Shown here in pieces: positions 2,822 through 33,673 of a DNA stretch of 40,766 bases (position 1 is the first letter of the stretch; each line of letters begins with the position of its first letter). Location: sequence record OZ035791.1. One strand, 5' to 3'. The notes under the pieces are model-generated. The model saw nothing but the letters and a program-made list of their open reading frames with translations, did no database searches and was not told the origin of the DNA. Origin of the DNA: Kagunavirus LF7074P3. Both the position numbers and the translations under genes were made by a program.

Positions 2822-3898
2822 ATGCTATTAACTTTAGCGCCACAGGGTTTATCTATGAGCTTACTTACATCACTAATCAGCCACCAGATATGGCTGCAAC
2901 GAACCGCATCCGGTGAGGTGAAAGACCTCGCGCCGTTCATTAAGGAGATGCGGGACGAAATCAAACGGCAGGTGCTGCTATTCGGCGACGGCGGTCGCAG
3001 CACTGCGCGACTGAATAAACTGTTACGTGACCTTGAAGAAGCACTGACAGGACTTACTGGTGACTGGCAAACAAAGCTGGCAGAAGACCTCAAGGAACTG
3101 GCGGTGTATGAAGCTGAGTGGAACGTAAAGACCCTGACCGCCAACGTAGATGCGGAATTTGTTACGCCCACCGCCGAACAGGTGTGGGCCGCTGCTGAGT
3201 TTCAGCCATTATCATTGAGTGGCAAGCCAGTTGATTTCACTAAACTGATGTCAGGTTGGGGTGAAACGGAAGTAGCACGTCTTGTAACCGGCGTTAAGAT
3301 GGGCTTTGTACAAGGTCAAACAACACGGCAGATTGTTAAGAATGTAGTAGGCGCCGGTGGGCTGGCTGACATCTCTGAGCGTAACGCCGCTACCGTCATC
3401 CGCACCGCGCTGTCTCACGTGTCCAACGAAGCCCGTAACGAGACGTACCGCCAGAACGACGACATCATCGAGAAGTACGAGTGGGTGTCAACGCTGGACA
3501 GCCGTACCAGTACGATTTGCAGAGCCAGAGACGGAATGACGTGGGAAATTGGTAAAGGGCCGATGCCCCCTGCCCATCCGAACTGCCGGTCGTGCACGGC
3601 TCCGGTAATCAGTTCCGAGTTCGACTTCCTCGATAAAGGCGCAAAACGCGCGGCTAAGGGCGCCGAAGGCGGTACTCAGGTAAGTGCGGACACCACCTAT
3701 TACGAGTTCCTGAAACAACAACCGGCATGGTTTCAGGACCAGGCGCTCGGCCCTGTTCGCGGTAAGATTTTCCGTAACAGCGGTATATCGCCGGAAGAGT
3801 TTCGCGTAATATCTGTAGATGGTTTCGGGAACCCGCTGACGCTTAAGCAGATGGCGGAACTCGATAAACGTGTTGCTGATTATCTGAAAGGGGAATAA
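2822..3898 (+). CDS. head morphogenesis / minor head protein (positional call)
   Basis: 358-aa ORF following portal; start codon uncertain (2822 or 2855); stop overlaps next ATG (TAATG). Confidence 0.55.
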   Translation: MLLTLAPQGLSMSLLTSLISHQIWLQRTASGEVKDLAPFIKEMRDEIKRQVLLFGDGGRSTARLNKLLRDLEEALTGLTGDWQTKLAEDLKELAVYEAEWNVKTLTANVDAEFVTPTAEQVWAAAEFQPLSLSGKPVDFTKLMSGWGETEVARLVTGVKMGFVQGQTTRQIVKNVVGAGGLADISERNAATVIRTALSHVSNEARNETYRQNDDIIEKYEWVSTLDSRTSTICRARDGMTWEIGKGPMPPAHPNCRSCTAPVISSEFDFLDKGAKRAAKGAEGGTQVSADTTYYEFLKQQPAWFQDQALGPVRGKIFRNSGISPEEFRVISVDGFGNPLTLKQMAELDKRVADYLKGE

Positions 3899-4359
3899 TG
3901 ATGGGCTTTTTCAAAGTAACTGACGTACCGTCTCGTCGCGTAGTCCAGTACGCCCGCGTGTCTGGCTCTGGCGAGAACGTGGTGTTTATTGAAGACGAAA
4001 GTGTACTCGGAACACCAGTGGACGATATGCCGTTTGCGGACAAGACCGGTATTGCGCTGCCAGCGGCAGGTATGCTTTATGAGATTCAGTACCTGGCGGA
4101 TGCTGGTGATGTGTATTTCTCCGTACAACCGCAGGACGCTGAACTGGCAGACGGCAGCGCAAATATCGCTGTCGAAGTTAAGGCGGGCAAAGCACCATAT
4201 GCGCTGACCTGGTACAAAGACGGGAAGGAAGTGGTAAACGCCCCGGAAGAGGCTCTGTCTCTGACGGTTAACGCAGTTGGTGAATACTTCGTTAAAGTCA
4301 CTGATGCCGATGGTATAGAGGCCGTAAGTAAAGCAGCGAAGGTTACTAAGCCAGAATAA
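3898..4359 (+). CDS. structural protein with Ig-like C-terminal domain (putative head decoration)
   Basis: 153-aa ORF; C-terminal beta-rich segment ...PYALTWYKDGKEVVN...EYFVKVTDADGIE resembles Ig-like fold; followed by strong terminator. Confidence 0.45.
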   Translation: MMGFFKVTDVPSRRVVQYARVSGSGENVVFIEDESVLGTPVDDMPFADKTGIALPAAGMLYEIQYLADAGDVYFSVQPQDAELADGSANIAVEVKAGKAPYALTWYKDGKEVVNAPEEALSLTVNAVGEYFVKVTDADGIEAVSKAAKVTKPE

Positions 4360-4363
4360 ACTG

Positions 4364-4385
4364 AAGCCCCGAAAGGGGCTTTTTA
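4364..4385 (+). terminator. rho-independent terminator
   Basis: AGCCCC-GAAA-GGGGCT hairpin + TTTTT immediately after 3898..4359. Confidence 0.8.
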
Positions 4386-4448
4386 GTGCCTGTGATTATT
4401 CCAGTTATTCCACTCAATTGTAAATGTTGGAATAAACTATTCGAATAG

Positions 4449-4477
4449 TTGACTTTTCACCAAAAATGTGCTAAGCT
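4449..4477 (+). promoter_or_regulatory. sigma70-like promoter (TTGACT-N17-TAAGCT with TGn extended -10)
   Basis: TTGACT 4449-4454, 17-nt spacer, TGcTAAGCT; abutted upstream by perfect palindrome CTATTCGAATAG (4437-4448). Confidence 0.5.
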
Positions 4478-4654
4478 CCACCTGAGCTTGTGAAGTATGA
4501 ACAAGCGACCGCGGCGCGGGCAGGTAACGGAGCGGGACGTAAGTCCTGAGTGTAGTTACGCTGACGCGTTCGGAAGGGCCATACTCTATTGCTTGTGTAA
4601 AAAGTAACTGGTTTACTGAGATTACGCCGTTTCTATGTTTAAATGATAAGGACT

Positions 4655-4681
4655 AGCGCCCCGCTTTAAGGCGGGGCTTTA
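4655..4681 (+). terminator. weak terminator / attenuator hairpin
   Basis: GCCCCGC-TTTAAG-GCGGGGC hairpin followed by only TTT; lies 20 nt before Rz start. Confidence 0.45.
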
Positions 4682-4701
4682 CTTATCGAGAAAGGGGAAA
4701 C

Positions 4702-5088
4702 ATGAATCTTAAAGCAACTGTCGTAGCGGGAGCATGTTTCATCATCCTGGCTTACGCACACGGCATCTACCAGTATCGCAGCGGCTGGAACGGAGGCCGG
4801 GCGAATCTCGTTTCGCAGCAACAGCAGAAAGCACAGGCTGAGTTAGCTAAGAAAACACAACGGCAGCGGCAGGATGAATCGAAGGCCGCCGCCGCTGATA
4901 ACGAAGGCAAGACGAAATCAGAGGTAATCACCCGTGAAGTCGTTAAGTACATTAAAACGCCTGGCCGCAGCGTGTGCACTTTTGACCCTGAGCGCGTGCA
5001 GCTCAAGTCCCGCGCCGTCGCAAACGCCAATTCCATCCCCGGATACGACGATGATGCAGCCGCCGTGCAAACTGGCACTGCCAAGTAA
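4702..5088 (+). CDS. Rz: Rz-like inner-membrane spanin (i-spanin)
   Basis: 128-aa ORF: N-terminal hydrophobic TMD (VVAGACFIILAYA), charged coiled-coil-like periplasmic domain; contains overlapping lipoprotein ORF in +1 frame; RBS AAAGGGG. Confidence 0.75.
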   Translation: MNLKATVVAGACFIILAYAHGIYQYRSGWNGGRANLVSQQQQKAQAELAKKTQRQRQDESKAAAADNEGKTKSEVITREVVKYIKTPGRSVCTFDPERVQLKSRAVANANSIPGYDDDAAAVQTGTAK

Positions 5089-23381: not shown

Positions 23382-23572
23382 TCGAACTCCACAAGGTCGT
23401 TGCCGTTAGCAGAGCCTATCTCAAAATAGCCCGTTTCATCATTGTAACCCGCGAAAAACACAGAGCCGTACTCACTAAAAACACGAAATCCGCCACCAGC
23501 AAACTCCGCTGTATATTCCTTACCTTCTTTGAACACTGACGACATTTCTGAGCTTACGCAAAACAATTTCAT
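23378..23572 (-). CDS. hypothetical protein
   Basis: 64-aa ORF, start/stop coupled to helicase gene. Confidence 0.4.
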   Translation of the reverse strand: MKLFCVSSEMSSVFKEGKEYTAEFAGGGFRVFSEYGSVFFAGYNDETGYFEIGSANGNDLVEFE

Positions 23573-24993
23573 TTCTTACCTCGTCTCTTCATGTAATTAA
23601 GCAACTCTTCCTGTACCGATTTCTTCTCGTCCGTACGCGCGGCAACAACCTCGTCCAGCGTGTCTTTAGCGACTATGTGATACAGGAACACAGGGCGCCC
23701 ATGCCCGGCCTGCTTCTGGCGCACTGGGCCTATACGCTCAACAACCTGCAAATAGTGTTCAAGGTTCCAGCCTTGCGAAATAAACGCCAGATGGTGTCCG
23801 CCGTCCTGTAAATTCAAACCATGCCCGGCTGACGCAGGATGTACACACAAAATCTCTATCTCGCCGCGGTTCCACGCGTCCATCTGCTTATTACCCTTAG
23901 CACCTTTGGCAAACGCCTGTGCCTGCGGGAATCGCTTAAGGATGCGCTCCAGTTCGTGCTTGAACTGATAGGCTACCAGTAATGGCGCACCCTGCAACTC
24001 CTCAACAATGGACTCAAGCGCATCCAGTTTCGTGTCGTGCACCTTCTCCCAGTCTTTCGTTGCTTCGCCATCAGGCCCCGACACATACACGGCACCAGAT
24101 GCAATTTGCAGGCACTTAGACGTCTTCGCCGCAGCGTTAGCCGCTTCAACTTCTCCGCTCTCCAGCTCCGCGAATAGCTTCTCCTCCATATCGAGGTACG
24201 CCTGCCGCGCTTTCTTCGGCAGGTCGATTTCAACCGGTACGATAACAGGCGCTTCACACCCAAACCACTCTGCGGCGTCAATCGTGAGACTAATGTCTTT
24301 CATCTTCTGGTGGATTTCATTATCCGCACCAGGACGCGCATGATACTCCCGCGCCATCGCCGACTTACCTTTTTGCACAGAGTTGAACCAGCGGTCGGTG
24401 AACGCAGTGTACGATGAACCGAGGCGCTCGCCAGCGTCGATAAACCAGTTCTGGCCCCACAGGTCTTTGAGGCCGTTAGGCGACGGTGTGCCCGTCAGAT
24501 TGATGAAACGCTTAACTTTACCGAACGCCACTTTGCTGAGCGCCTTTGCCCGCTTGCTACCACCAGAACGGCTACGGAATGACTTCAGTTTCGTACTCTC
24601 ATCCGCAACGATAACCGTAAAAGGCCAGTCGTCTTTGCCGTAGTAGTCAATCAGCCACTCGATAACTTCGTAGTTGGTACACACCACGTTAGCATCTGAC
24701 TCCAGCGCCGCGATGCGGCGCTTCTCTGAACCTGTTGCATCTACGACACTCAGACATGGGAAGTCCCAACGTGCCTGTTCTGCAGGCCACGTACCGGAAG
24801 CAACACGTAAAGGAGCCAGAATTAACACGCGGTCGTCATCATTAAGTTGGCCGTTGCGGAACAGTCGGTTGAGTACCCACAACGTTGCGGAACTTTTGCC
24901 CGCGCCCATCGAAGCCCAAATATTACAGCGAGGATGCCGCAGCATGAATGAAGTCATGAGCTTTTGGTACTCTCGACGGATAAATTTAGACAT
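23569..24993 (-). CDS. SNF2/DEAD-like superfamily-2 DNA helicase
   Basis: Motifs GAGKS (Walker A), ADEST (DExx), LTGTP; ATG at 24993 (RBS AAGGG) preferred over TTG 24999. Confidence 0.8.
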   Translation of the reverse strand: MSKFIRREYQKLMTSFMLRHPRCNIWASMGAGKSSATLWVLNRLFRNGQLNDDDRVLILAPLRVASGTWPAEQARWDFPCLSVVDATGSEKRRIAALESDANVVCTNYEVIEWLIDYYGKDDWPFTVIVADESTKLKSFRSRSGGSKRAKALSKVAFGKVKRFINLTGTPSPNGLKDLWGQNWFIDAGERLGSSYTAFTDRWFNSVQKGKSAMAREYHARPGADNEIHQKMKDISLTIDAAEWFGCEAPVIVPVEIDLPKKARQAYLDMEEKLFAELESGEVEAANAAAKTSKCLQIASGAVYVSGPDGEATKDWEKVHDTKLDALESIVEELQGAPLLVAYQFKHELERILKRFPQAQAFAKGAKGNKQMDAWNRGEIEILCVHPASAGHGLNLQDGGHHLAFISQGWNLEHYLQVVERIGPVRQKQAGHGRPVFLYHIVAKDTLDEVVAARTDEKKSVQEELLNYMKRRGKK

Positions 24994-24995
24994 AA

Positions 24996-25190
24996 TCAAC
25001 CCTTAATGTAGAGTACCAGCTCTTTACGCCCGAACGCCGTAACGTTACCCGTTACATCTTCGATAACCAGTTTACCGTTTGACTCGACGTACACCGTATC
25101 AACGGCAACAGGGTGGCGGGTCTTAACGTTGAAAATCATATCGCCAGGTACGATGTCACGTGCTGGTTTGCGGTCATATTCGTGTTTCAT
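24996..25190 (-). CDS. hypothetical protein
   Basis: 64-aa ORF with RBS AAGGA, directly downstream of promoter at 25224-25252. Confidence 0.45.
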   Translation of the reverse strand: MKHEYDRKPARDIVPGDMIFNVKTRHPVAVDTVYVESNGKLVIEDVTGNVTAFGRKELVLYIKG

Positions 25191-25220: not shown

Positions 25221-25505
25221 TTAACTATAATAGCTCGCTATTAGGTCGTCAACCTGTTTAAACGAACCAACGACAAAAACATTCGCACCACGTTTACGCA
25301 TCCGCTCGTGCTCACGTAACTGGTGTGGGTCTGGCTTCGTGTTTTCGTCTTTCTTAACCTCGACGAACAAGACGATGCCGCCGGGTAGAATTACCAGCAG
25401 ATCGGGAGCGCCGGAGCGCCCCTCATAGGAAAGTTTACGAACGAGGCCGCCGATAGCCTCGAATCGCTCTTTTGCGTATTTCTGGATGCGCCCCTCTTTA
25501 GTCAT
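25221..25505 (-). CDS. VRR-NUC domain nuclease (PD-(D/E)XK)
   Basis: 94 aa; ...GAPDLLVILPGGIVLFVEVKK... matches PD..(D/E)xK core of VRR-NUC family. Confidence 0.65.
   Translation of the reverse strand: MTKEGRIQKYAKERFEAIGGLVRKLSYEGRSGAPDLLVILPGGIVLFVEVKKDENTKPDPHQLREHERMRKRGANVFVVGSFKQVDDLIASYYS
25224..25252 (-). promoter_or_regulatory. sigma70-like promoter TTGACG-N17-TATAGT (minus strand) with ATAG-N4-CTATTAG dyad in spacer
   Basis: Minus-strand gTTGACGacctaatagcgagctatTATAGTt; lies inside 3' end of VRR-NUC ORF. Confidence 0.6.
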
Positions 25506-25740: not shown

Positions 25741-25868
25741 TCCAGCACCCACAGATAAATTGCGATGAATATACCCAATACGGCTACCATCATGCCGTAT
25801 CGCCCCTCATGACAGTAGACACCCGCGGCGAATCCCGCCAGTACCGCAATAATCAGTTTACTTAGCAT
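25737..25868 (-). CDS. small membrane protein (43 aa)
   Basis: MLSKLIIAVLAGFAAGVYCHEGRYGMMVAVLGIFIAIYLWVLE; ATG lies 10 nt inside the 3' end of the polymerase ORF in another frame. Confidence 0.3.
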   Translation of the reverse strand: MLSKLIIAVLAGFAAGVYCHEGRYGMMVAVLGIFIAIYLWVLE

Positions 25869-28107
25869 ATCGCTTCATCTCCGCACCTTCAGCTACAAGA
25901 GGGAACCCCTCCGCCCATTCCGGTAATTCGCACATCAATCGTTCCAGTTCTGCTACATTATATTCCGGTGAATCTGGTGTCTCGCAGATAATCTCATCGT
26001 GTACGTGAAGTACAATCGGGTAGCCGTTTGCTTCTACGTTCAGCAGGGCATTAGCCAGCAAATCGCGGCACAGCGCCTGAGTGCAGTTTTCCACCAGTTT
26101 GCCTGAGTACGTGTACTGGAATCCCCACTGACGAGTTAACTGGTTCTCCCCCTGATACTTGATGCGCACGTTAGTAGAAACTTTCCCGTCTTCGTCCGTC
26201 TCTTTCGATACGCTCAATCCGACGCCAGGGTAAGACATTACGCGGCCTGACGGCAACGTCATACGCAACCACCAACCAGCGACTTTGTTGCCGTTGTTGT
26301 CTGTCTCCACGTTACGCGAAAACTTAACGCCGCGCGGCCCCGCGGTGAACTCTTTACCGGGATTGCGGATAGCCGCCATAGCTGCGTCTTCAATATCTCG
26401 CCAGAAAGCTACTGTTTCAGGATGAGACTCGCGCCACATACGCTTGATAGCGTCGCAGGTACGCCACACTTTCTTGTCCAGAATATATGATGGTCGGTCA
26501 TCTTTTTCACCGGGACGTGGTGGTCTCTTGGCTTCCTGAATACGCGCCCACTCATAACCCCGCGCGGTAGCGGCCCATATATGGCCTGGGAAAGTACCGT
26601 CCATTGTTTTAGCCATATCAAAAAGGTTTAAGCCGAGGTTTTTAGCAAACTGAACGAAAGCACCGACACCACCTGCATAGCCGAGGCCCAATTCACATGC
26701 TTTACCAATCTGGCGCAGGTCACTACGGCTTTCGAGAATGTAATCAGGGTCCATGCCAAACATCTTACCTGCAGTTACGCAGTAAATATCCAATCCCGCA
26801 CGGAAGGTATCTAGCGCGGTTTCTTCTCCTGCCAGCCATGCCAACCCGCGTCCTTCGACGTTAGAGTAATCGGCGACTACAAACTTATGTCCGGCTTCCG
26901 GTATGATGCAACTACGCACCGTCGACGCCGTTAGCTTGGCTACATCAAAACGGCGATGCGCACGACCTTTAAACAACAGGTCGATTCCGTAGGACAATGG
27001 GTGTGTTACTCTCCACCAGTCCTTCTCTGACATCCAGTCATAACGTACTTTCTTCTTTTTATTCTTCGGGTCGTCGTGATAGTACCCGCGCGCCAGGTTC
27101 TGCGGCTGGAAGCCTTTACCCGCAAACCGTAATGTACGCTTTGCCCCACCGTACTGGATGCAACCGCGGCGTCGGTCGTCCGACGAGCGACCTAACAGCA
27201 GCGGGTTATATTTCGTTGACGCGGTAGACGCGGCCCCGAGTCGCATCTCGATAATCGCGCTGGCGTCGTCCGGTAAATCGTCGTCAGCAAGCAGGTCGTT
27301 AAGCGTTGACTTCTGTGCGTTGTGAATACGGTGCGCCGGTGCGAGTTCACGCAGAATCGGAAGGAAGTCCTTTCCGGTAAGCGAGCCGCCGTATTTACGT
27401 TGGGCTTCTTCCTGTAACTGTGCTTTGTGCTTCTCCACGGCTTCAATCGCGGCTTCCGCCAGTGCCACGTCAACCTTAAACCCGCGGTCATTTATTAACT
27501 GATCCAGTTCCAGTACCCGGTCCTCGAATTCAGAGTTACCCCAACGCGGCAGCTTATAGAAGACTTCACGCATCGCAGTGATGTCGCTCACAGCGTACTT
27601 GATGAACAGAGCCCACTCGTCAGGGTGAGTTTCTGCGGTGTAGCGGCGGATTTTGTAGTTCTTTGGCGTCGGTTTAGAGAAACGCTTAATCAGCGCCTTG
27701 CCGCGTTTATCTTTCGCGTTGTCCGCGGATACACCCAGCACTTCGCACAACGCATCAAGTGAACCAGGCAGCGCGTGACGAAACGCCCAAATCATCGTAT
27801 CAATGGTGTTGCTTACCGGAATATCAAAGCCCCAGCAGTGTTTCATGATGAGCCTGTCGAACATTGAGCCGTTATGCCACACCATCTTGATGCGACTGTT
27901 TGGCTTCACCAGACGGCGTAACGCGCGGTGCAAATCCCCCGGCATGTCGCTGCCGTCTGTGCAATCCCATACCCGCACAGGCTCGTCGTCAAAAGCATAT
28001 GTACAAATAAGGACTTCGGTAGTTGGATGCTCAGCGTAAGCGTAGGAACCAACTTTCTTCAAATCGGCTTCGGAGAATGTTTCAAAGTCTAAGAACAGGT
28101 AACTCAT
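25858..28107 (-). CDS. family A DNA polymerase with 3'-5' exonuclease domain
   Basis: 749 aa; exo motif DFETFS near N-terminus; pol motifs DYSNVEGR (motif A), RQIGKACELGLGYAGG (motif B), HVHDEI (motif C). Confidence 0.9.
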   Translation of the reverse strand: MSYLFLDFETFSEADLKKVGSYAYAEHPTTEVLICTYAFDDEPVRVWDCTDGSDMPGDLHRALRRLVKPNSRIKMVWHNGSMFDRLIMKHCWGFDIPVSNTIDTMIWAFRHALPGSLDALCEVLGVSADNAKDKRGKALIKRFSKPTPKNYKIRRYTAETHPDEWALFIKYAVSDITAMREVFYKLPRWGNSEFEDRVLELDQLINDRGFKVDVALAEAAIEAVEKHKAQLQEEAQRKYGGSLTGKDFLPILRELAPAHRIHNAQKSTLNDLLADDDLPDDASAIIEMRLGAASTASTKYNPLLLGRSSDDRRRGCIQYGGAKRTLRFAGKGFQPQNLARGYYHDDPKNKKKKVRYDWMSEKDWWRVTHPLSYGIDLLFKGRAHRRFDVAKLTASTVRSCIIPEAGHKFVVADYSNVEGRGLAWLAGEETALDTFRAGLDIYCVTAGKMFGMDPDYILESRSDLRQIGKACELGLGYAGGVGAFVQFAKNLGLNLFDMAKTMDGTFPGHIWAATARGYEWARIQEAKRPPRPGEKDDRPSYILDKKVWRTCDAIKRMWRESHPETVAFWRDIEDAAMAAIRNPGKEFTAGPRGVKFSRNVETDNNGNKVAGWWLRMTLPSGRVMSYPGVGLSVSKETDEDGKVSTNVRIKYQGENQLTRQWGFQYTYSGKLVENCTQALCRDLLANALLNVEANGYPIVLHVHDEIICETPDSPEYNVAELERLMCELPEWAEGFPLVAEGAEMKRYAK

Positions 28108-28123
28108 TATTTTCGACCCTTAG

Positions 28124-28147
28124 TAAAAAGGCCCAATGAAGGGCCTT
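28124..28147 (-). terminator. partial terminator/attenuator between SSB-like gene and polymerase
   Basis: Minus-strand AGGCCC-TTCATT-GGGCCT hairpin followed by TTTTA. Confidence 0.4.
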
Positions 28148-28166
28148 AGTTAAATTGATTCAGATA

Positions 28167-28793
28167 TTATCGGCGACGACGTTCGCGGCGCGGTGCTTCA
28201 TCCTCTTCATCGTCTTCAAGGTCATCGACGCTTGCGGCTACTTTAGAACCGCCAAACGCTTTACCTTCACCAACGTATTTAATAGCCAGCAGGTTAACGC
28301 CGAGGACTTTGTATTTCTGGCTGAACCAGATTTCAACGCTTACGTTAGCGACGCAGCCGCTGTAAACCTGTTCACCTTCAATCTGTTCGCCGTCTACGTT
28401 GAAGTCCTGCTCTACCTGAGTCTCACCTTTTTTAGAGGTTACAATCAGCGGCTGCTTCTGTGCCTTCGCTTTGAAGTAGAAGCCTTCTGGGAAGTCTTCA
28501 AACGGGTTATCACGCTCAGCAATGTCTTTAATCGCGCATTTATCCATGTGCTTACCTTCGCCGTAGTTGGACTTCATCCATTTCTCGGCAGCAGCTGCGC
28601 CTAACGCTTCTTCAACTACAGCGTAAACAGTGTCGTAGAGTGCATCGATTTGAGCGTGGTCAGGCGGCAGGATGATAGTCGCGCTATACTGGCCTTTAGT
28701 GATGGAGCCATCATCGTTTTCACGGTCTTTTTCGCGTTCGAATACGTTAACCCATGCAGTGTTTACTTTACGCAGATTCAGTTTAATTCCCAT
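28167..28793 (-). CDS. ssDNA-binding protein-like (DUF2815-like)
   Basis: 208 aa with acidic C-terminal tail DDLEDDEEDEAP followed by RRERRRR; adjacent to Cas4-like nuclease as in known DUF2800/DUF2815 phage pairs (recall-based). Confidence 0.55.
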   Translation of the reverse strand: MGIKLNLRKVNTAWVNVFEREKDRENDDGSITKGQYSATIILPPDHAQIDALYDTVYAVVEEALGAAAAEKWMKSNYGEGKHMDKCAIKDIAERDNPFEDFPEGFYFKAKAQKQPLIVTSKKGETQVEQDFNVDGEQIEGEQVYSGCVANVSVEIWFSQKYKVLGVNLLAIKYVGEGKAFGGSKVAASVDDLEDDEEDEAPRRERRRR

Positions 28794-28847
28794 CTTAATT
28801 TCTCGCTTTTCAGTTTACTCCTGGAAGCTGCCAGGCCAGTGATTAGA

Positions 28848-28876
28848 ACTATAATAGCTAACTATTCAGGTGTCAA
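28848..28876 (-). promoter_or_regulatory. sigma70-like promoter TTGACA-N17-TATAGT (minus strand) with ATAG-N4-CTATTCA dyad
   Basis: Minus-strand gTTGACAcctgaatagttagctatTATAGT; 55 nt upstream of SSB-like gene start. Confidence 0.7.
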
Positions 28877-28880
28877 CAAT

Positions 28881-30122
28881 TTATTCTAAATCTTCTTCAC
28901 TAACCCGATTCCACTCAGGACGTTTGTCGTTTGCCGTTGCGACACATGGCGCTCCTGGCTTACGGGTAATGAAGTCTTTCAGTTCATCTTCCGGTATGAC
29001 TTTAACAGCTTCGGTTGGCGTCATGAGCACTTCTTTAGTCAGCTTGTCGCCGTAGAGTTCTGTTACTTTCTCCGCGTCTTTCCACGCACGGTTGCCCATC
29101 TTACCTTCAACCAGCTTGTACCCAGGAACTTTCTTACCGGAATGCAATGCGGCGGTCATCGCTTTCTCAACCTTGTCGATGTGCTGGCGTAACAGCGGCA
29201 ACTTCTCATACTCAACTACGAGTTGCTCCGTCGTCAGTTCCAGCGCAAAGTCGTCTTCCAGTTCTTCCGCCAGTACAGAATTAACCGTCTTTGTACGTGC
29301 GGCACACTGTTCAGAGAACCGGCACCACTGGCAACCATCGACCGACGGTTTAAAGTCCGACGCTTTCAGGTTCTTCTTTCCACGGAAATAAGCATCAAGC
29401 GCTAACAGTGCCCGTTTCTGTGCGAACTTAGCGAACAGTTCCAGACCTTCGACCGAGATGTCCCACTCTGACGCACCCCCTGCGTACGGCTGGAAGATGA
29501 CCAGGCGCACTACTGTGATGTTATAACGTCTCTTGAGTCGGCGATAAACACCGAGAGCGTAAAGCATAAGCTGCTTGTTTTCTTTCGCTTCGACACGATG
29601 CCGTCCTGTTTTAAGGTCGCCGATAATTAGCATGTGCTCATCGGTGTTAGCCAGTTCCTGAATGGCAACAAGGTCAGCGGTTCCGAACGTCTCAACGCCT
29701 TCATATCCCGGATGCAGCACCTCAGTAAGATTGACGCGCATTTCCAGCTTGGCATAAGTCGCTACGTCTATAATCGCTTTGCAGTAGTCGGTGTACTTGC
29801 GCACCTGCTCAATCATGTCCGCCGTGATTAGTACAGCGCCTTTCATCTGACTAATTAGCGCCTTAATCTGGCCTTTACCCTCGTCCAGCACGTAAGCGCC
29901 GACTTCACGCTCTAGCGGCAGTGCATTGCCGCGGATATAGGCGTTGAGATGTACCTCAGCTATGGTGTGCATAGCCGTGCCTAATACCGCGGCTTTACCG
30001 GACGTGTTGGGGATATCTTTCTCACAGGCCAGTGATGCGGCGCAGCTTAGCCACTTTTTAGCCCCGGACGGCGATAGTAAAGCGTGTACGTCGTTATTGC
30101 CACCGCGTTCTTTTAGTTTCAT
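28881..30122 (-). CDS. PD-(D/E)XK nuclease, Cas4/RecB-like (DUF2800-like)
   Basis: Motifs GTADLV ... IIGDLKTG ... QLMLYA and C-terminal Cys cluster CQWCRFSEQC; ATG 30122 with RBS GGGAG preferred (track start 30143). Confidence 0.7.
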   Translation of the reverse strand: MKLKERGGNNDVHALLSPSGAKKWLSCAASLACEKDIPNTSGKAAVLGTAMHTIAEVHLNAYIRGNALPLEREVGAYVLDEGKGQIKALISQMKGAVLITADMIEQVRKYTDYCKAIIDVATYAKLEMRVNLTEVLHPGYEGVETFGTADLVAIQELANTDEHMLIIGDLKTGRHRVEAKENKQLMLYALGVYRRLKRRYNITVVRLVIFQPYAGGASEWDISVEGLELFAKFAQKRALLALDAYFRGKKNLKASDFKPSVDGCQWCRFSEQCAARTKTVNSVLAEELEDDFALELTTEQLVVEYEKLPLLRQHIDKVEKAMTAALHSGKKVPGYKLVEGKMGNRAWKDAEKVTELYGDKLTKEVLMTPTEAVKVIPEDELKDFITRKPGAPCVATANDKRPEWNRVSEEDLE

Positions 30123-30277
30123 GCTCTTAAACTCCCACCCCATTTAACTTTACGCGTTTTGCGTTTATATGCGCACGTGTCGCCGCTACGGTTGAATATA
30201 ATCAGCCAAGTCGAGTTGCTTACTCGAAAAGGCTGGTGGCGTTTAATAAAGAGAAGTCGCGCTTTACGGTTCGTCAT
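30119..30277 (-). CDS. small basic protein (52 aa)
   Basis: ATG with AGGAG 8 nt upstream; stop overlaps nuclease ATG (ATGA); not in ORF track. Confidence 0.35.
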   Translation of the reverse strand: MTNRKARLLFIKRHQPFRVSNSTWLIIFNRSGDTCAYKRKTRKVKWGGSLRA

Positions 30278-30317: not shown

Positions 30318-30596
30318 TTACAAACATGCTCTGTTCTCCCACTGGTCAATTAAATGTCTGGTCTGGTGCTGGCAATGCATGGCCCATCCATACATCGACT
30401 CGAAGACATAAAAGTCAGGCTTGGCAAAAGTCGTGCGCTTAATCTGCGACACATGACGGCCTATATCTTTAGCCCGCGGTACTTTGCCTAAGTACGCCAT
30501 CTCTTCCATCTGGTGTGCACCGGACGGCGCACGCAATAACCATAGCGCCTCTGTGTTATCCCGCCGGTCAACGGCGCGGTATAGTTGGTAAATCAT
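30318..30596 (-). CDS. hypothetical protein
   Basis: 92-aa ORF in leftward operon. Confidence 0.45.
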   Translation of the reverse strand: MIYQLYRAVDRRDNTEALWLLRAPSGAHQMEEMAYLGKVPRAKDIGRHVSQIKRTTFAKPDFYVFESMYGWAMHCQHQTRHLIDQWENRACL

Positions 30597-30639: not shown

Positions 30640-31107
30640 TTATTCTTCTTCGAAATACTTGTTCTTGATTGCCGTCAGGCGTTCCAGGTATTCAGCAAGG
30701 TCTTCGTCTTTAATCGCGGCAATCTTCATCTTCTTACCGGTGAACTCTTCCAGCAGTTCATCGGAATCATCGCACGCGGCGTCGCTCGGACCTTCGTTAA
30801 TTGCATCGTCGATAGCCTGAATCTGGTCACGCAGAGACTGGTAATCTACTTCTTCCTTCTCTTCCGGTTCTGGCGTCGGTTCCTCTACTTTAGATTTACG
30901 CGGCTTGCGTTTCGGCTTCTCTTCTTCTGCTGGTTTAGTGTCAACGATGTCTTCACCTTCAACCGGGATTTCTTTTGTTGCTTCTTTTGCAACATCAGGC
31001 TCGGTTGTTGCGGTTTCAGCAACGACAACTTGTTTCGCGCTGTTCGCAGCAATCAGTTCATGGGCTACTACGAAACGTTCCAGTAATTTTAAGAATTGGT
31101 CTAACAT
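30640..31107 (-). CDS. highly acidic hypothetical protein
   Basis: 155 aa, long Glu/Asp-rich stretches with one KRKPRKSK patch; first gene downstream of leftward promoter 31139-31168; RBS GAGGAG. Confidence 0.5.
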   Translation of the reverse strand: MLDQFLKLLERFVVAHELIAANSAKQVVVAETATTEPDVAKEATKEIPVEGEDIVDTKPAEEEKPKRKPRKSKVEEPTPEPEEKEEVDYQSLRDQIQAIDDAINEGPSDAACDDSDELLEEFTGKKMKIAAIKDEDLAEYLERLTAIKNKYFEEE

Positions 31108-31138
31108 TTGTTTCTCTCCTCTCGTTTGGTATGGGTTA

Positions 31139-31168
31139 ACTATAATAGCGAACTATTCATGATGTCAA
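31139..31168 (-). promoter_or_regulatory. sigma70-like promoter TTGACA-N18-TATAGT (minus strand) with ATAG-N4-CTATTCA dyad
   Basis: Minus-strand aTTGACAtcatgaatagttcgctattATAGT. Confidence 0.65.
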
Positions 31169-31232: not shown

Positions 31233-31448
31233 ATGCAACCATCTGAACTAGGCATCCGTGTAGAGCAACGCCGTAAAGAACTCGGTATCTCCCAGCGCCA
31301 TCTGGCTGTCCTGGCCGGTGTTTCCCAAGGCGCGATTAACCAGCTGGCACTTGGAGTAACTCAGGACGTCCGCCCGGCGACGCTGTTTAAACTGGCGGAA
31401 GTGCTGGAAGTAGACGCCAAGTGGCTGGCGTTCGGTGAAGGGGCTTAA
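31233..31448 (+). CDS. Cro/CI-type (XRE-family) HTH DNA-binding protein
   Basis: 71 aa; ...ELGISQRHLAVLAGVSQGAINQL... HTH; RBS AGGAG; transcribed opposite to surrounding leftward genes. Confidence 0.75.
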   Translation: MQPSELGIRVEQRRKELGISQRHLAVLAGVSQGAINQLALGVTQDVRPATLFKLAEVLEVDAKWLAFGEGA

Positions 31449-31463
31449 CGCCCCTTTCTTTTT
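31439..31463 (+). terminator. rho-independent terminator (rightward only)
   Basis: AGGGGC-TTAAC-GCCCCT hairpin + TTTCTTTTT overlapping cro-like stop. Confidence 0.7.
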
Positions 31464-31465
31464 AC

Positions 31466-33673
31466 CTATTCCAAATCCTCTTCTGTCACCACCAGCATTT
31501 CATTCGGTTCGTATATTGTCTTCGGTCTTAGTCTATCCCCTATTCTTTCAGGTATACGATACGTTCTCGGTACTACTTCGCCATTAGCATCACAGCCTAG
31601 CATTAGTTCACCATCTTTCAGCATTTTATCAAGATGGGTGTTAGTCACAGAAAAGTCACCGGAACGGGCCACTATCTGCTGCTGAGTAAAACCGCGACCT
31701 GTGTCATCTGACTGTTGCAGGTCTTCCAGTGCCGAAAGTATCGACTCCTTCCTTACTTCATCCCTGCCGCGTTTAACTTCTTCCTTTACTTTTTGTTTAC
31801 CTTCGTTAGTTAACCCTTCTTCCCGCTCTTTCTCCTCGTCAGTTTTGAACGGCTCGAAGCCCCACGGCATCAGAACAAGCGCCTTGTGTGGTTCCGGCAG
31901 GTCGAGGTTTACGATTGTGCCGTATTCCTCTGTGCTGCCCAAGAACTCAACAGCACGGTACTCTTTCGGCGGTGGTGCTTCACGGAACTGTACAGACTCA
32001 AGTACCATGCCAACCGTTTTCTGTTGAGGCCCGTGCTTAAATTTCGAGTGGTATACGTTTATCTGACGGTCGGTTGCACGTTCTATTGTCAGTTCCACAT
32101 CGACACCCGCATACAGCGCCCCGCTGCCACGGGCTTTCTTTCCGCCCTTCGGTGTATGGTGGACGACGCCCACCGCGGCTTTAGTTGCGTCACGTACTTC
32201 TTTAAGGATGGCGATAACTTTACCCATGCCGATTGCCGTTGATGAACTGTTCTCGTCGAACTTATCAATCGTCATGGCCAGTGTCTGGTTAAGGGTGTCG
32301 AACGCAACCATCCCAATTGGCTCGTCACCCGCAGTTTCTCGCATTAGCTTAATCAGGCTTTTCAGTTTGCCAACTTCGCCCATATCGATGACATGTACAT
32401 AATCTTTACCTTCCTCGCCGTATTTAGCCGCGAGTGCATCAATACGGGTGCGTGTGGCAGCACCGCCCTCACCGTCAATATAGAAATGGTGGCAACGCTG
32501 TGTATCAGCGCCTGCAAACCGGTACCCGGCGGCGCTCAGGTACATCATACCCAGCGTATAGAATGATTTATATGTGCCGGATTCCCCGACGATGTCCCAG
32601 ATGCAATCCGACGGCATGTACCCTTCAACGACGAAATCAGCCTTTACCGGTTCAGGTAACTCGTCATCGTCTTCAAGGTCTTCCAGTGTACAAGTTACAG
32701 GCTCCTCGTTCTCTGTGCGGTGCAGTTCTTCAATCTCTTCATCCGGTAAATCAGGCAGAGCCGCACGAATGCTGTTAATACTGATAGGTTGCTTGTCTAC
32801 GTTAAGCTCGTCCGGAAGGCCGCACATACGCAGGGCCAAATGTTGTCGGCGGTTAAGCTCAGTGCAAGCACCGTTGTTTGTGTGCTGGCACACGAAGCGC
32901 ACTTCTTTACCGTCGAGCATGATGCTGGTGGAGCCTTTGCCGGTGTGCAGGTGTTCGTTAGGGCAAGGCACTTCGTACCCGCGACCGGAAGATAAAGCGT
33001 CAAGGCCAAGCTCCGCTTCGCAGAAATGCGCTATATCCGCGTTAAGCCCATGCTCATCGGCAGCAAGGGTCTTAGCTTCACGCTTACGCAACCCCATTTC
33101 TTCGGCTTTCTTGATGTACCGCTCGGCACGGATAACACGCCCTTCTGTAACCGTTATCTTCGACTCTTTATGCGGCAGGTAGATAAGGCGGTTGCCATCT
33201 TCTGTGCAGTGGTCGCGCAATGCTTCGTCTATTTCTAACTCAGCACAAATAGCACGTTGCACCATCCACGCGTCGTTAGAGTTAAACGGCGTGCGGGCCG
33301 GTACAAGAACGCGGAAAGCGTAGTCACCGTTTTTACACGCGTGCTGGTGCGACGCCGTTGTGTGCAGAATATTGAAGAACGGCGCGTTCTTGAATTTGCG
33401 GGTGAGGTCGCGGTACTGGGTACGGTTTAGATGGTCGAAATCGAACTTAACCACACTGTCTTCCAGAATCGCGTTCTTACGGCGACCGCCAACCGGCGCA
33501 ATAGCTTTCTGCTTAATCTTGGCCGCGTCGTACTCTTCCTTAGTCCATGACGGGTCTACGGACAGACGCTTCGATGTATCGCAGACATACTCTACAAACT
33601 GCTCCAGTGGCATTTCACGGGCTACCGGGTTTTTATCGAAAGTGTTACGCAGCGTTGCAAAAACAATATTCAT
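31466..33673 (-). CDS. DNA primase / RecA-like ATPase (primase-helicase-like) replication protein
   Basis: 735 aa; central Cys/His zinc-binding-like segment (CPNEHLHTGK...C), Walker A-like GESGTYKS and Walker B-like VAFDTL. Confidence 0.7.
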   Translation of the reverse strand: MNIVFATLRNTFDKNPVAREMPLEQFVEYVCDTSKRLSVDPSWTKEEYDAAKIKQKAIAPVGGRRKNAILEDSVVKFDFDHLNRTQYRDLTRKFKNAPFFNILHTTASHQHACKNGDYAFRVLVPARTPFNSNDAWMVQRAICAELEIDEALRDHCTEDGNRLIYLPHKESKITVTEGRVIRAERYIKKAEEMGLRKREAKTLAADEHGLNADIAHFCEAELGLDALSSGRGYEVPCPNEHLHTGKGSTSIMLDGKEVRFVCQHTNNGACTELNRRQHLALRMCGLPDELNVDKQPISINSIRAALPDLPDEEIEELHRTENEEPVTCTLEDLEDDDELPEPVKADFVVEGYMPSDCIWDIVGESGTYKSFYTLGMMYLSAAGYRFAGADTQRCHHFYIDGEGGAATRTRIDALAAKYGEEGKDYVHVIDMGEVGKLKSLIKLMRETAGDEPIGMVAFDTLNQTLAMTIDKFDENSSSTAIGMGKVIAILKEVRDATKAAVGVVHHTPKGGKKARGSGALYAGVDVELTIERATDRQINVYHSKFKHGPQQKTVGMVLESVQFREAPPPKEYRAVEFLGSTEEYGTIVNLDLPEPHKALVLMPWGFEPFKTDEEKEREEGLTNEGKQKVKEEVKRGRDEVRKESILSALEDLQQSDDTGRGFTQQQIVARSGDFSVTNTHLDKMLKDGELMLGCDANGEVVPRTYRIPERIGDRLRPKTIYEPNEMLVVTEEDLE

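Follow-up and report, generated by a model that had tools for sequence, protein, structure and literature searches.

The stretch of DNA analysed here, which we call the window, comprises 40,766 nt of sequence record OZ035791.1 (Kagunavirus LF7074P3), and all coordinates refer to it. Its replication region encodes a DUF2800 nuclease, an SSB (a binding protein for single-stranded DNA, ssDNA) and a family-A DNA polymerase (PolA), all on the minus strand (Table 1). A preliminary description, made from the letters alone, had likened two adjacent open reading frames (ORFs) to the DUF2800/DUF2815 pairs that stand beside family-A polymerases in several phage groups. Both ORFs are present on the minus strand, and the comparison is borne out by profile matches, by the polymerase gene and by the same gene order in other phages; hidden Markov model (HMM) searches matched PF10926 (DUF2800) and PF10991 (formerly DUF2815) far beyond chance. 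This pair had been known and annotated before; it is the ordinary nuclease and SSB module of a Kagunavirus-type E. coli phage. The new points are modest: a conserved Arg-rich addition to the SSB tail, and one acidic peptide common to the nuclease, the SSB and the helicase-primase.

Table 1. Features of the replication region, in window coordinates
Feature	Coordinates	Strand	Description	Basis
DUF2800 nuclease gene	28881-30122	minus	413 aa; RecB/AdnA/AddB-like PD-(D/E)XK domain, then conserved C-terminal domain	
Nuclease C27	30042-30044	minus	fourth Cys of the "iron-staple" pattern	invariant
Nuclease catalytic motifs	29559..29684	minus	G147-T-A-D150, G168-D-L-K-T-G173, N182-x-Q184-xxx-Y188	invariant in diverse DUF2800 alignments
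Nuclease cysteine cluster	29304..29333	minus	C264-x2-C267-x5-C273 (CQWCRFSEQC, residues 264-273)	
Nuclease C-terminal tip	28884..28901	minus	S-E-E-D-L-E-COOH (...RVSEEDLE), putative docking peptide	
SSB gene	28167-28793	minus	208 aa; DUF2815/Enc34 type, T7 gp2.5-like	
SSB core	28251..28793	minus	OB-fold core of gp2.5/Enc34-type SSB, residues 1-181	PF10991, AF2, Foldseek
SSB acidic tail part	28197..28232	minus	docking-type motif S188-V-D-D-L-E193, then acidic run D194-E199	sequence reading
SSB tail-start motif	28215-28232	minus	SVDDLE (...ASVDDLEDD)	
SSB Arg-rich terminal block	28170..28196	minus	Pro-hinged, A200-P-R-R-E-R-R-R-R208	
Helicase-primase gene	31466-33673	minus		
Helicase-primase C-terminal tip	31469..31486	minus	T-E-E-D-L-E-COOH (...VVTEEDLE)	
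Helicase-primase linker motif	32660..32686	minus	LEDLEDDDE, residues 330-338	DNA 22/24 identical to SSB-tail DNA 28203-28226
Family-A DNA polymerase gene	25858-28107	minus	749 aa; directly downstream of SSB	Pfam PF00476, PHROG 17
Promoter	28848-28876	minus	sigma-70-like, TTGACA-17-TATAGT (11/12), between nuclease stop and SSB start	consensus match alone
Terminator-like hairpin	28125-28147	minus	AAGGCCC-TTCATT-GGGCCTT into T tract, 20 nt past SSB stop, before polymerase	direct reading
Three small ORFs	30640-31107, 30318-30596, 30119-30277	minus		
VRR-NUC resolvase-like protein	25221-25505	minus		
SNF2 helicase	23569-24999	minus		
HTH_3 (XRE-type) regulator	31233-31448	plus	71 aa; between helicase-primase gene and orf155	
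Hairpin	31437-31457		between HTH_3 regulator and helicase-primase gene end	
Shadow ORF	28155-28604	plus	149 aa; overlaps the SSB gene	treated as a shadow because antisense to a strongly supported gene; no further evidence for it was sought

Across its 10-kb replication region the window shares 96.9% identity with Kagunavirus LF7074P1; for many E. coli Kagunavirus genomes the figure is ∼90%, and for hundreds of Salmonella Jerseyvirus genomes it is 80-90%. Record OR594183.1 (Escherichia phage vB_EcoM_SHAK7858), which is ∼90% identical in this region, is labelled Autographiviridae / Kayfunavirus, and its taxonomy line is probably mislabelled. In annotated relatives the nuclease appears as "exonuclease" or "DUF2800 domain-containing protein" and the SSB as "ssDNA binding and annealing protein, Gp2.5-like" or "DUF2815 family protein". 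We compared loci from Dhillonvirus, from Chivirus and other Casjensviridae, from Staphylococcus, Streptococcus, Clostridium, Phocaeicola, Paenibacillus, Elizabethkingia, Ruegeria and Coprococcus phages, and from one uncultured phage (EBPR siphovirus 2). The nuclease and SSB genes are adjacent and co-oriented, an arrangement conserved across phages; the order nuclease, SSB, family-A polymerase is found in most annotated loci, among them those of Dhillonvirus, Chivirus and phages of Staphylococcus, Streptococcus, Clostridium, Paenibacillus, Elizabethkingia and Ruegeria, and recurs in >15 phage lineages. The duf2800-gp2.5-polA module of phages and prophages has already been described (PMC8093625); it has the same two Pfam families in the same order beside a family-A polymerase, and its solved DUF2815 SSB is ORF6 of Enterobacter phage Enc34. 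The pair itself adds nothing new: modules of this kind are textbook material, and the genus has hundreds of sequenced members.

The SSB matches PF10991 (Enc34_ssDNA-bd) with an E value of 9e-16 and 58.4 bits (cut-off 26) over profile positions 3-173 of 176, and PHROG 112, "Gp2.5-like ssDNA binding and annealing protein", at 1e-42. Its AlphaFold2 (AF2) model, built from an 80-sequence alignment, has a mean predicted local distance difference test score (pLDDT) of 89, and each 10-residue block of residues 1-180 averages at least 87. In Foldseek, the model matches the Enc34 SSB 5ODJ (1e-9), the structural-genomics DUF2815 proteins 4KLK (1.5e-9) and 4JG2 (8e-8), and T7 gp2.5 1JE5 (4e-6), each with a probability of 1.00, which places it among the modified oligonucleotide/oligosaccharide-binding (OB) folds of the T7 gp2.5 type. 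The tail beyond this core is predicted to be disordered (pLDDT ∼56-60). The closest solved relative, Enc34 ORF6 (PDB 5ODJ/5ODK/5ODL), has the same OB fold followed by a disordered tail that starts with an acidic-hydrophobic motif; it is an ssDNA binder by experiment, and its acidic tail tunes the discrimination between ssDNA and double-stranded DNA (PMC5686142). A DUF2815 prophage protein has shown weak oligonucleotide recombineering activity (PMC5743808). By analogy with these relatives, the window SSB would be expected to prefer ssDNA and to anneal strands.

The nuclease matches PF10926 over the whole profile (positions 1-368 of 368; E value 6e-67, 227 bits, cut-off 21), as well as PF12705 PDDEXK_1 (9e-10) and PHROG 69, "exonuclease" (8e-121). 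An upstream in-frame ATG at 30143 would extend it by 7 residues to 420 aa, but we prefer the start at 30122 because the homologues are all 413-414 aa long and because this ATG overlaps the stop of the upstream 52-aa ORF (30119-30277) as ATGA. The overlap suggests translational coupling of the two genes; the 52-aa ORF has its own AGGAG site. Alignments of 9 and of 26 diverse DUF2800 proteins show invariant H13, S19, W24, C27, G48-T49, H52, E56, Y110, E127, G147, D150, D169-L-K171, G173, N182, Q184, Y188 and Q211, and, in the C-terminal domain, G334, K336, R345, D399 and R401, the last two within a DKRP motif at residues 399-402. The preliminary description had pointed to a CQWCRFSEQC cluster and to DxK motifs; the cluster lies at residues 264-273 and D-L-K at 169-171. 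Judged by D150, D169-x-K171 and Q184xxxY188, the active site, set on a restriction-endonuclease-like core, is that of the RecB-family PD-(D/E)XK nucleases. At least 90% of sequences keep C264, C267 and C273, the one case of loss being Streptococcus phage P9; together with C27 these cysteines make up the one-plus-three arrangement of iron-staple nucleases of the AddB/AdnA/Cas4 type, and the protein may bind a 4Fe-4S cluster as its relatives do.

Comparison of the AF2 model with solved folds gave the highest scores for AdnA (10.6 and 9.6), followed by Dna2 (9.4), an Argonaute-associated Cas4-family protein (9.2), MGME1 (8.2), AddA (8.1), Cas4-Cas1 (8.1), Type I-C Cas4 (7.6), RecE (7.5), AddB (7.3), SSO0001 Cas4 (7.1), RecB (6.7) and Lambda exonuclease (5.8). 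A phmmer search of the nuclease against PDB sequences returned no match. The DUF2800 profile hit AdnA alone among PDB sequences, at an insignificant level (E 0.8-1.5), with DLKTGK...QL..Y and GC..C.....C in register. Unlike AdnA/AddB/RecB, Dna2 and Cas4, the window nuclease is a stand-alone protein of 413 aa without a helicase motor, and it has an extra conserved C-terminal domain (G334, K336, R345, D399-x-R401) and an acidic tip. A 2026 preprint on Bas14_0045, the DUF2800 nuclease of a Dhillonvirus, reached the same structural conclusion (bioRxiv 10.64898/2026.07.14.737667); Dhillonvirus DUF2800 nucleases are ∼45% identical to the window nuclease, a figure for the genus and not for that protein itself. 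Altogether, profile, motif and fold evidence establishes the family, active site and Cys pattern of the nuclease as well as the fold and predicted tail disorder of the SSB. In the nucleases of Jerseyvirus, SenTO17 and Dhillonvirus, 30-60 aa are inserted behind the Cys cluster (read at 3501-4925 of locus L011, 3654-4937 of L010 and 3986-5416 of L002); the window nuclease has no such insertion.

The acidic tip of the nuclease is shared. The tips of the nuclease and the helicase-primase are the only two matches to [DE][DE]DLE in a six-frame translation of all 40.8 kb, and a related motif opens the SSB tail. A further copy in the helicase-primase linker is conserved, as LEDLEEEDE in SHAK7858 and DEEDLADEE in Jerseyvirus Ent3. 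We read the tips in other phages (loci L002, L003, L009-L011, L013-L016 and L018-L024). The acidic motif differs between lineages, yet it changes together within each phage. In the order helicase-primase (or primase or helicase), nuclease, SSB, the endings are ...ATDDDLKD, ...ATDEDLSNE and ...SDEDLDNDD in Maverick; ...VEDDLEN, ...TDDDLAN and ...TDSDLDD in SenTO17; ...GEWEDEV, ...WDDEDDDEV and ...DWEDEV in ST-101; ...EEDDEV, ...DDDEV and ...YDDDEV in XAP3; and ...IEDLLG, ...VDDLLG and ...DDDLLG in Ruegeria V7. Nuclease and SSB also agree in Elizabethkingia TCUEAP1 (...EFNIGLDV and ...GFDIGL) and in metagenomic contig L024 (...ASKDELSCDE and ...ASKDELGDD), where the helicase-primase is not on the contig. 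When the best 6-residue match between nuclease tip and SSB tail was scored across 14 lineages, same-phage pairs reached 328 against 234 ± 17.5 for shuffled pairings, and 0 of 20,000 permutations scored as high, a partial control given that several of the lineages are related. The co-variation was seen in two further metagenomic contigs as well. Generic acidic composition was considered as the cause of the likeness; it is countered by the permutations and by the non-acidic pairs FNIGL/FDIGL and ASKDEL/ASKDEL, and also by DDLLG/DDLLG.

A precedent for such sharing is found in T7, where the acidic tails of gp4 and gp2.5 compete for basic patches of gp5/trx (bioRxiv 10.64898/2026.05.20.726333). 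The window resembles T7 in its gp2.5-type SSB fold, in the similar acidic C-terminal peptides on SSB and helicase-primase, in its family-A polymerase and in an SSB classed as an annealing protein. It differs in that a third protein, the nuclease, carries the peptide, in that the motif reads ...DLE where T7 has an acidic run with a final Phe, and in the internal position of the SSB motif, ahead of a basic block. The T7-like sharing of tails would thus extend here to the nuclease. The co-varying motifs are also what suggests that nuclease and SSB interact, as a SynExo-type pair of exonuclease and annealase.

The tail of the SSB is where the window departs from most of its family. The protein ends in ...SVDDLEDDEEDEAPRRERRRR, that is, DDLEDDEEDE-AP-RRERRRR, so that the acidic block (residues 190-199) is followed by APRRERRRR in place of the canonical acidic-hydrophobic ending of T7 gp2.5-type proteins. 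Enc34 ORF6 and most members of the family differ in the same respects, with a purely acidic tail, a hydrophobic end and a core that is roughly neutral or basic, compared with a net core charge of -7 in the window. We searched 1.84 billion representatives at 50% identity and read the tails of 138 full-length matches. A canonical tail, acidic with a hydrophobic residue among the last three, is present in 117 (∼85%), with endings such as ...DDDIPF, ...DDLI and ...DDLLG (Enc34, ...WDEDEV); a basic block lies within the last 45 residues in 14, and at least 4 K/R occur among the last 8 residues in 9. The basic extension had been called unusual in the preliminary description, which is true against the DUF2815 family (9/138) and untrue within its own clade, where every member has basic blocks.

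This clade, monophyletic in a neighbour-joining tree of the OB core alone, unites the window SSB with those of Kagunavirus, Jerseyvirus, other Guernseyvirinae, Dhillonvirus and metagenomic relatives. In all of its members the tail consists of "(D/E)DL - acidic run - x-Pro - R/K run" units, and the "(D/E)DL + acidic run" part is kept throughout. The number of units varies: one in Kagunavirus and Jerseyvirus, including the window; two in SenTO17-like Guernseyvirinae, followed by the end YEDDEE; and three to four in Dhillonvirus SSBs, with three in SECphi4 and four in Maverick. The SSB of Escherichia phage SECphi4 (locus L022, 2495-3220), whose three acid/basic units read ...DEDEAPRKSKKSKRRDDDDEDDKPRKSKKSKRRDDDEDDDEDEKPRKRRRR, is a direct homologue of the window SSB, with 37% identity, the same clade and the same tail architecture. 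Outside the clade, basic blocks occur at no fewer than 4-5 separate places in the core tree, with the most units (∼7) in P0191, a metagenomic protein of an independent basic-tail lineage, and the tree suggests that the basic-block tail arose there independently. The cores also differ in charge. Mean net core charge is -6.3 in the window's clade and -3.7 in the independent basic-tail lineages, compared with +2.5 in 122 canonical members (Mann-Whitney p = 2e-11 and 2e-5, respectively; these tests ignore phylogeny, and the independent lineages serve as partial replicates). The 155-aa protein encoded at 30640-31107 (PHROG 3127) has a mixed-charge segment, EEEKPKRKPRKSKVEEPTPEPEEKEE, that resembles the acid-Pro-basic unit of the SSB tails.

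How might these elements work together? We think it likely, with some room for doubt, that the nuclease and SSB form the arm of a T7-like replication module that serves recombination and end processing, with a shared docking peptide and a modulatory tail. A role of the pair in recombination-dependent replication is plausible from what is known of the families. The nuclease would resect double-strand ends and expose single strands, which the SSB would coat, could anneal and would hand to the adjacent family-A polymerase for recombination-dependent replication and repair. The nuclease, SSB and helicase-primase each appear to carry (S/T)-x-(D/E)(D/E)-D-L-E, at the C-terminus of the nuclease and helicase-primase and at the start of the SSB tail. 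The same acidic peptide on each of the three points to a common basic docking site, and therefore to probable competition: judging from the co-variation and from T7, the three peptides probably dock in turn or compete for one basic site. The polymerase would be the likeliest site, by comparison with gp5/thioredoxin, on which the T7 gp4 and gp2.5 tails dock; the DNA groove of the SSB itself is the alternative.

The most speculative step concerns the basic block. In the SSBs of this clade, one or more "acidic run - x-Pro - Arg/Lys run" units would have taken the place of the usual acidic-hydrophobic tip, a change that goes with a net-acidic OB core, and the block would most likely be an electrostatic modulator. 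T4 gp32 has a basic N-terminal LAST motif, which confers cooperativity, and an acidic C-terminal domain, which binds partners and is autoinhibitory. By analogy, the basic block may add a backbone contact or SSB-SSB cooperativity, like the LAST motif, or it may mask the adjacent acidic docking motif until DNA is bound, which would compensate for an acidic core no longer able to hold the tail in the DNA groove. The likeness to gp32, an SSB that pairs a short basic peptide with an acidic segment, would be one of function only: the folds belong to unrelated families, and the basic and acidic segments lie at opposite ends of gp32 but adjacent in one tail in the window SSB.

Several points weigh against this picture of an end-processing arm with a docking peptide. 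Truncation escapers of the Bas14 homologue are viable, which means that the nuclease is dispensable in the laboratory (bioRxiv 10.64898/2026.07.14.737667), and the recombineering activity of the DUF2815 prophage protein was the lowest among all proteins tested (PMC5743808). The AF2 model of the nuclease is mediocre (mean pLDDT 65), with a well-predicted catalytic core and values <50 at the N-terminus and in the Cys region, because the homologue searches gave almost only Guernseyvirinae and hence a shallow alignment. The exonuclease polarity of the nuclease is assumed from its relatives. Acidic tails are alike in composition, so part of the motif similarity is generic, and the permutations control for this only in part. 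Finally, the polymerase and the SSB core are both candidates for the docking hub.

On this last point, the acidic tips may bind the OB groove of the SSB instead of the polymerase, so that SSB-coated DNA would recruit the nuclease and helicase-primase in a SynExo-type complex of nuclease and annealase. This is favoured by crystals of Enc34 ORF6, in which the tail of one molecule inserts into the β-sheet groove of its neighbour (PMC5686142), and by T7, where gp2.5 tail and ssDNA compete for one binding surface, going by the title of Marintcheva et al. 2008 (reference 14 in PMC5686142). In addition, the nuclease tip copies the tail motif nearest the SSB core. However, the net-acidic core of this clade should weaken the binding of an acidic peptide to the groove, and in T7 it is the polymerase that the helicase-primase tail binds (bioRxiv 10.64898/2026.05.20.726333). 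We regard groove binding as possible but doubtful.

It is unlikely that the main task of the acid/basic tail is self-association instead of the modulation of partner docking, with a blocky polyampholyte driving the formation of SSB-ssDNA condensates or replication foci. The strict alternation of D/E and R/K runs, in 1 to ∼7 copies, is what such a module would look like, and in other systems phase separation is promoted by blocky charge patterns (PMC9106583, PMC11938373). Against this, the window SSB has a single unit with a net charge of -3, which leaves little multivalency, and the literature we searched holds no condensate data for any gp2.5-type SSB. The idea also overlaps with the cooperativity reading of the basic block. 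A condensate role is possible for multi-unit tails and unlikely to matter for a single unit.

The Arg-rich end could also be a neutral low-complexity extension, or a by-product of nucleotide signals at the 3' end of the gene, with no function, which we consider quite unlikely. Its disorder would suit such an origin, as would the terminator-like hairpin just downstream of the gene and the difference in unit number between close relatives (SECphi4 and Maverick), as is seen in slippage-prone repeats. Yet the 27 tail codons (residues 182-208) of the window and SHAK7858 differ by 9 synonymous changes and 1 non-synonymous change. At 62% overall identity the tail reads DDLEDDEEDSAPRRRRRG; homologues with as little as 35-50% identity still have the block, and so does every clade member. 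At least 4-5 other DUF2815 lineages acquired such a block independently, and its presence correlates with a core that is ∼6-9 charges more acidic, the independent lineages included. From the codon and homologue comparisons, the basic block is constrained at the protein level, under purifying selection.

A functional Cas4 analogue that mainly biases or subverts spacer acquisition by host CRISPR-Cas is highly improbable: Cas4 profiles gave no match to the nuclease in Pfam (E ≤ 10; PF01930) or NCBIfam (E ≤ 1; TIGR00372), PADLOC gave no Cas4 family match and one weak match (E 0.002) to an Argonaute-associated Cas4-like nuclease, the AdnA and Dna2 resection domains outscore Cas4 in the fold comparison, and Cas4 has nothing equivalent to the 120-aa C-terminal domain and the acidic tip. 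We rejected Cas4 membership on the profile results. The genomic setting agrees, in that the nuclease has the helicase-primase, SSB, PolA, VRR-NUC and SNF2 helicase genes as neighbours and, in the loci compared, is always linked to SSB and PolA, not to cas genes; no cas1 or cas2 gene was noticed in the ORF list of the window and no CRISPR array in the window, where nothing reaches an Rfam gathering score and the Rfam and tRNA scans of the whole sequence were empty. The term "Cas4-like" in the preliminary description is apt for the fold and Fe-S-motif class and wrong for the family, which is DUF2800, with AdnA, Dna2 and AddA as nearest solved folds; the suggested influence on host CRISPR adaptation finds no support in these results.

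A different link to host defence comes from retrons. Bas14_0045 (B14T), the Dhillonvirus nuclease mentioned above, triggers retron type IX and requires its D/K catalytic residues to do so (bioRxiv 10.64898/2026.07.14.737667), and the SECphi4 SSB is by experiment the trigger of Retron-Eco8. Published work on these triggers treated the tails only as "flexible" or "disordered" C-terminal residues. It is tempting to combine these observations into a "peptide code" that ties the three proteins to one hub, while in the SSBs of this clade the electrostatic switch would have moved from the OB core to an acidic/Arg-rich polyampholyte tail of variable copy number (1 to ∼7), which would gate docking and drive assembly on ssDNA, either cooperative or condensate-like. 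Tail and tip variation may perhaps have been shaped by immune evasion, because Retron-Eco8 and retron IX are triggered by sensing SSBs and DUF2800 nucleases of this clade. We offer this combined proposal as a conjecture that is, as a whole, rather unlikely.

What do the new points mean more broadly? Tails of prokaryotic and phage SSBs are acidic as a rule, and the whole gp2.5-type SSB clade, including the SECphi4 SSB, departs from it. The co-evolving terminal peptide predicts a common docking site in a replisome that is widespread among sequenced phages; the nuclease alone is carried by ∼1,500 phage records (1,533 by tblastn). Both protein families are sensed by retron defence, which makes their constrained parts useful for phage-host work, and knowledge of these constraints could help in choosing or engineering therapeutic Kagunavirus and Jerseyvirus phages. 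We found no relevant literature on basic C-terminal tails in phage SSBs, nor a description of the basic-block tail clade, the core-charge link or the three-protein tip, in a search that covered few subscription-journal papers and is weak evidence of novelty.

The SSB gene is flanked by possible expression signals. Three near-identical sigma-70-like promoter repeats (TTGACA-N17-TATAGT) with a conserved spacer lie on the minus strand: 25223-25253 upstream of the SNF2-helicase block, 28847-28877 upstream of the SSB gene and 31138-31168 upstream of orf155. Promoters and terminators are as frequent in the region as expected from shuffling, and we call the promoter because of the three repeats, not because of scan statistics. 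The GC-rich hairpin downstream of the SSB gene was not listed by the terminator scan. At the level of consensus matches, promoter and hairpin would fit a separate, high-level expression of the SSB. On the other side of the nuclease, a small regulator gene on the plus strand and a second hairpin lie next to the helicase-primase gene (Table 1). The polymerase of Jerseyvirus Ent3 contains an intein, which the 749-aa polymerase of the window lacks.

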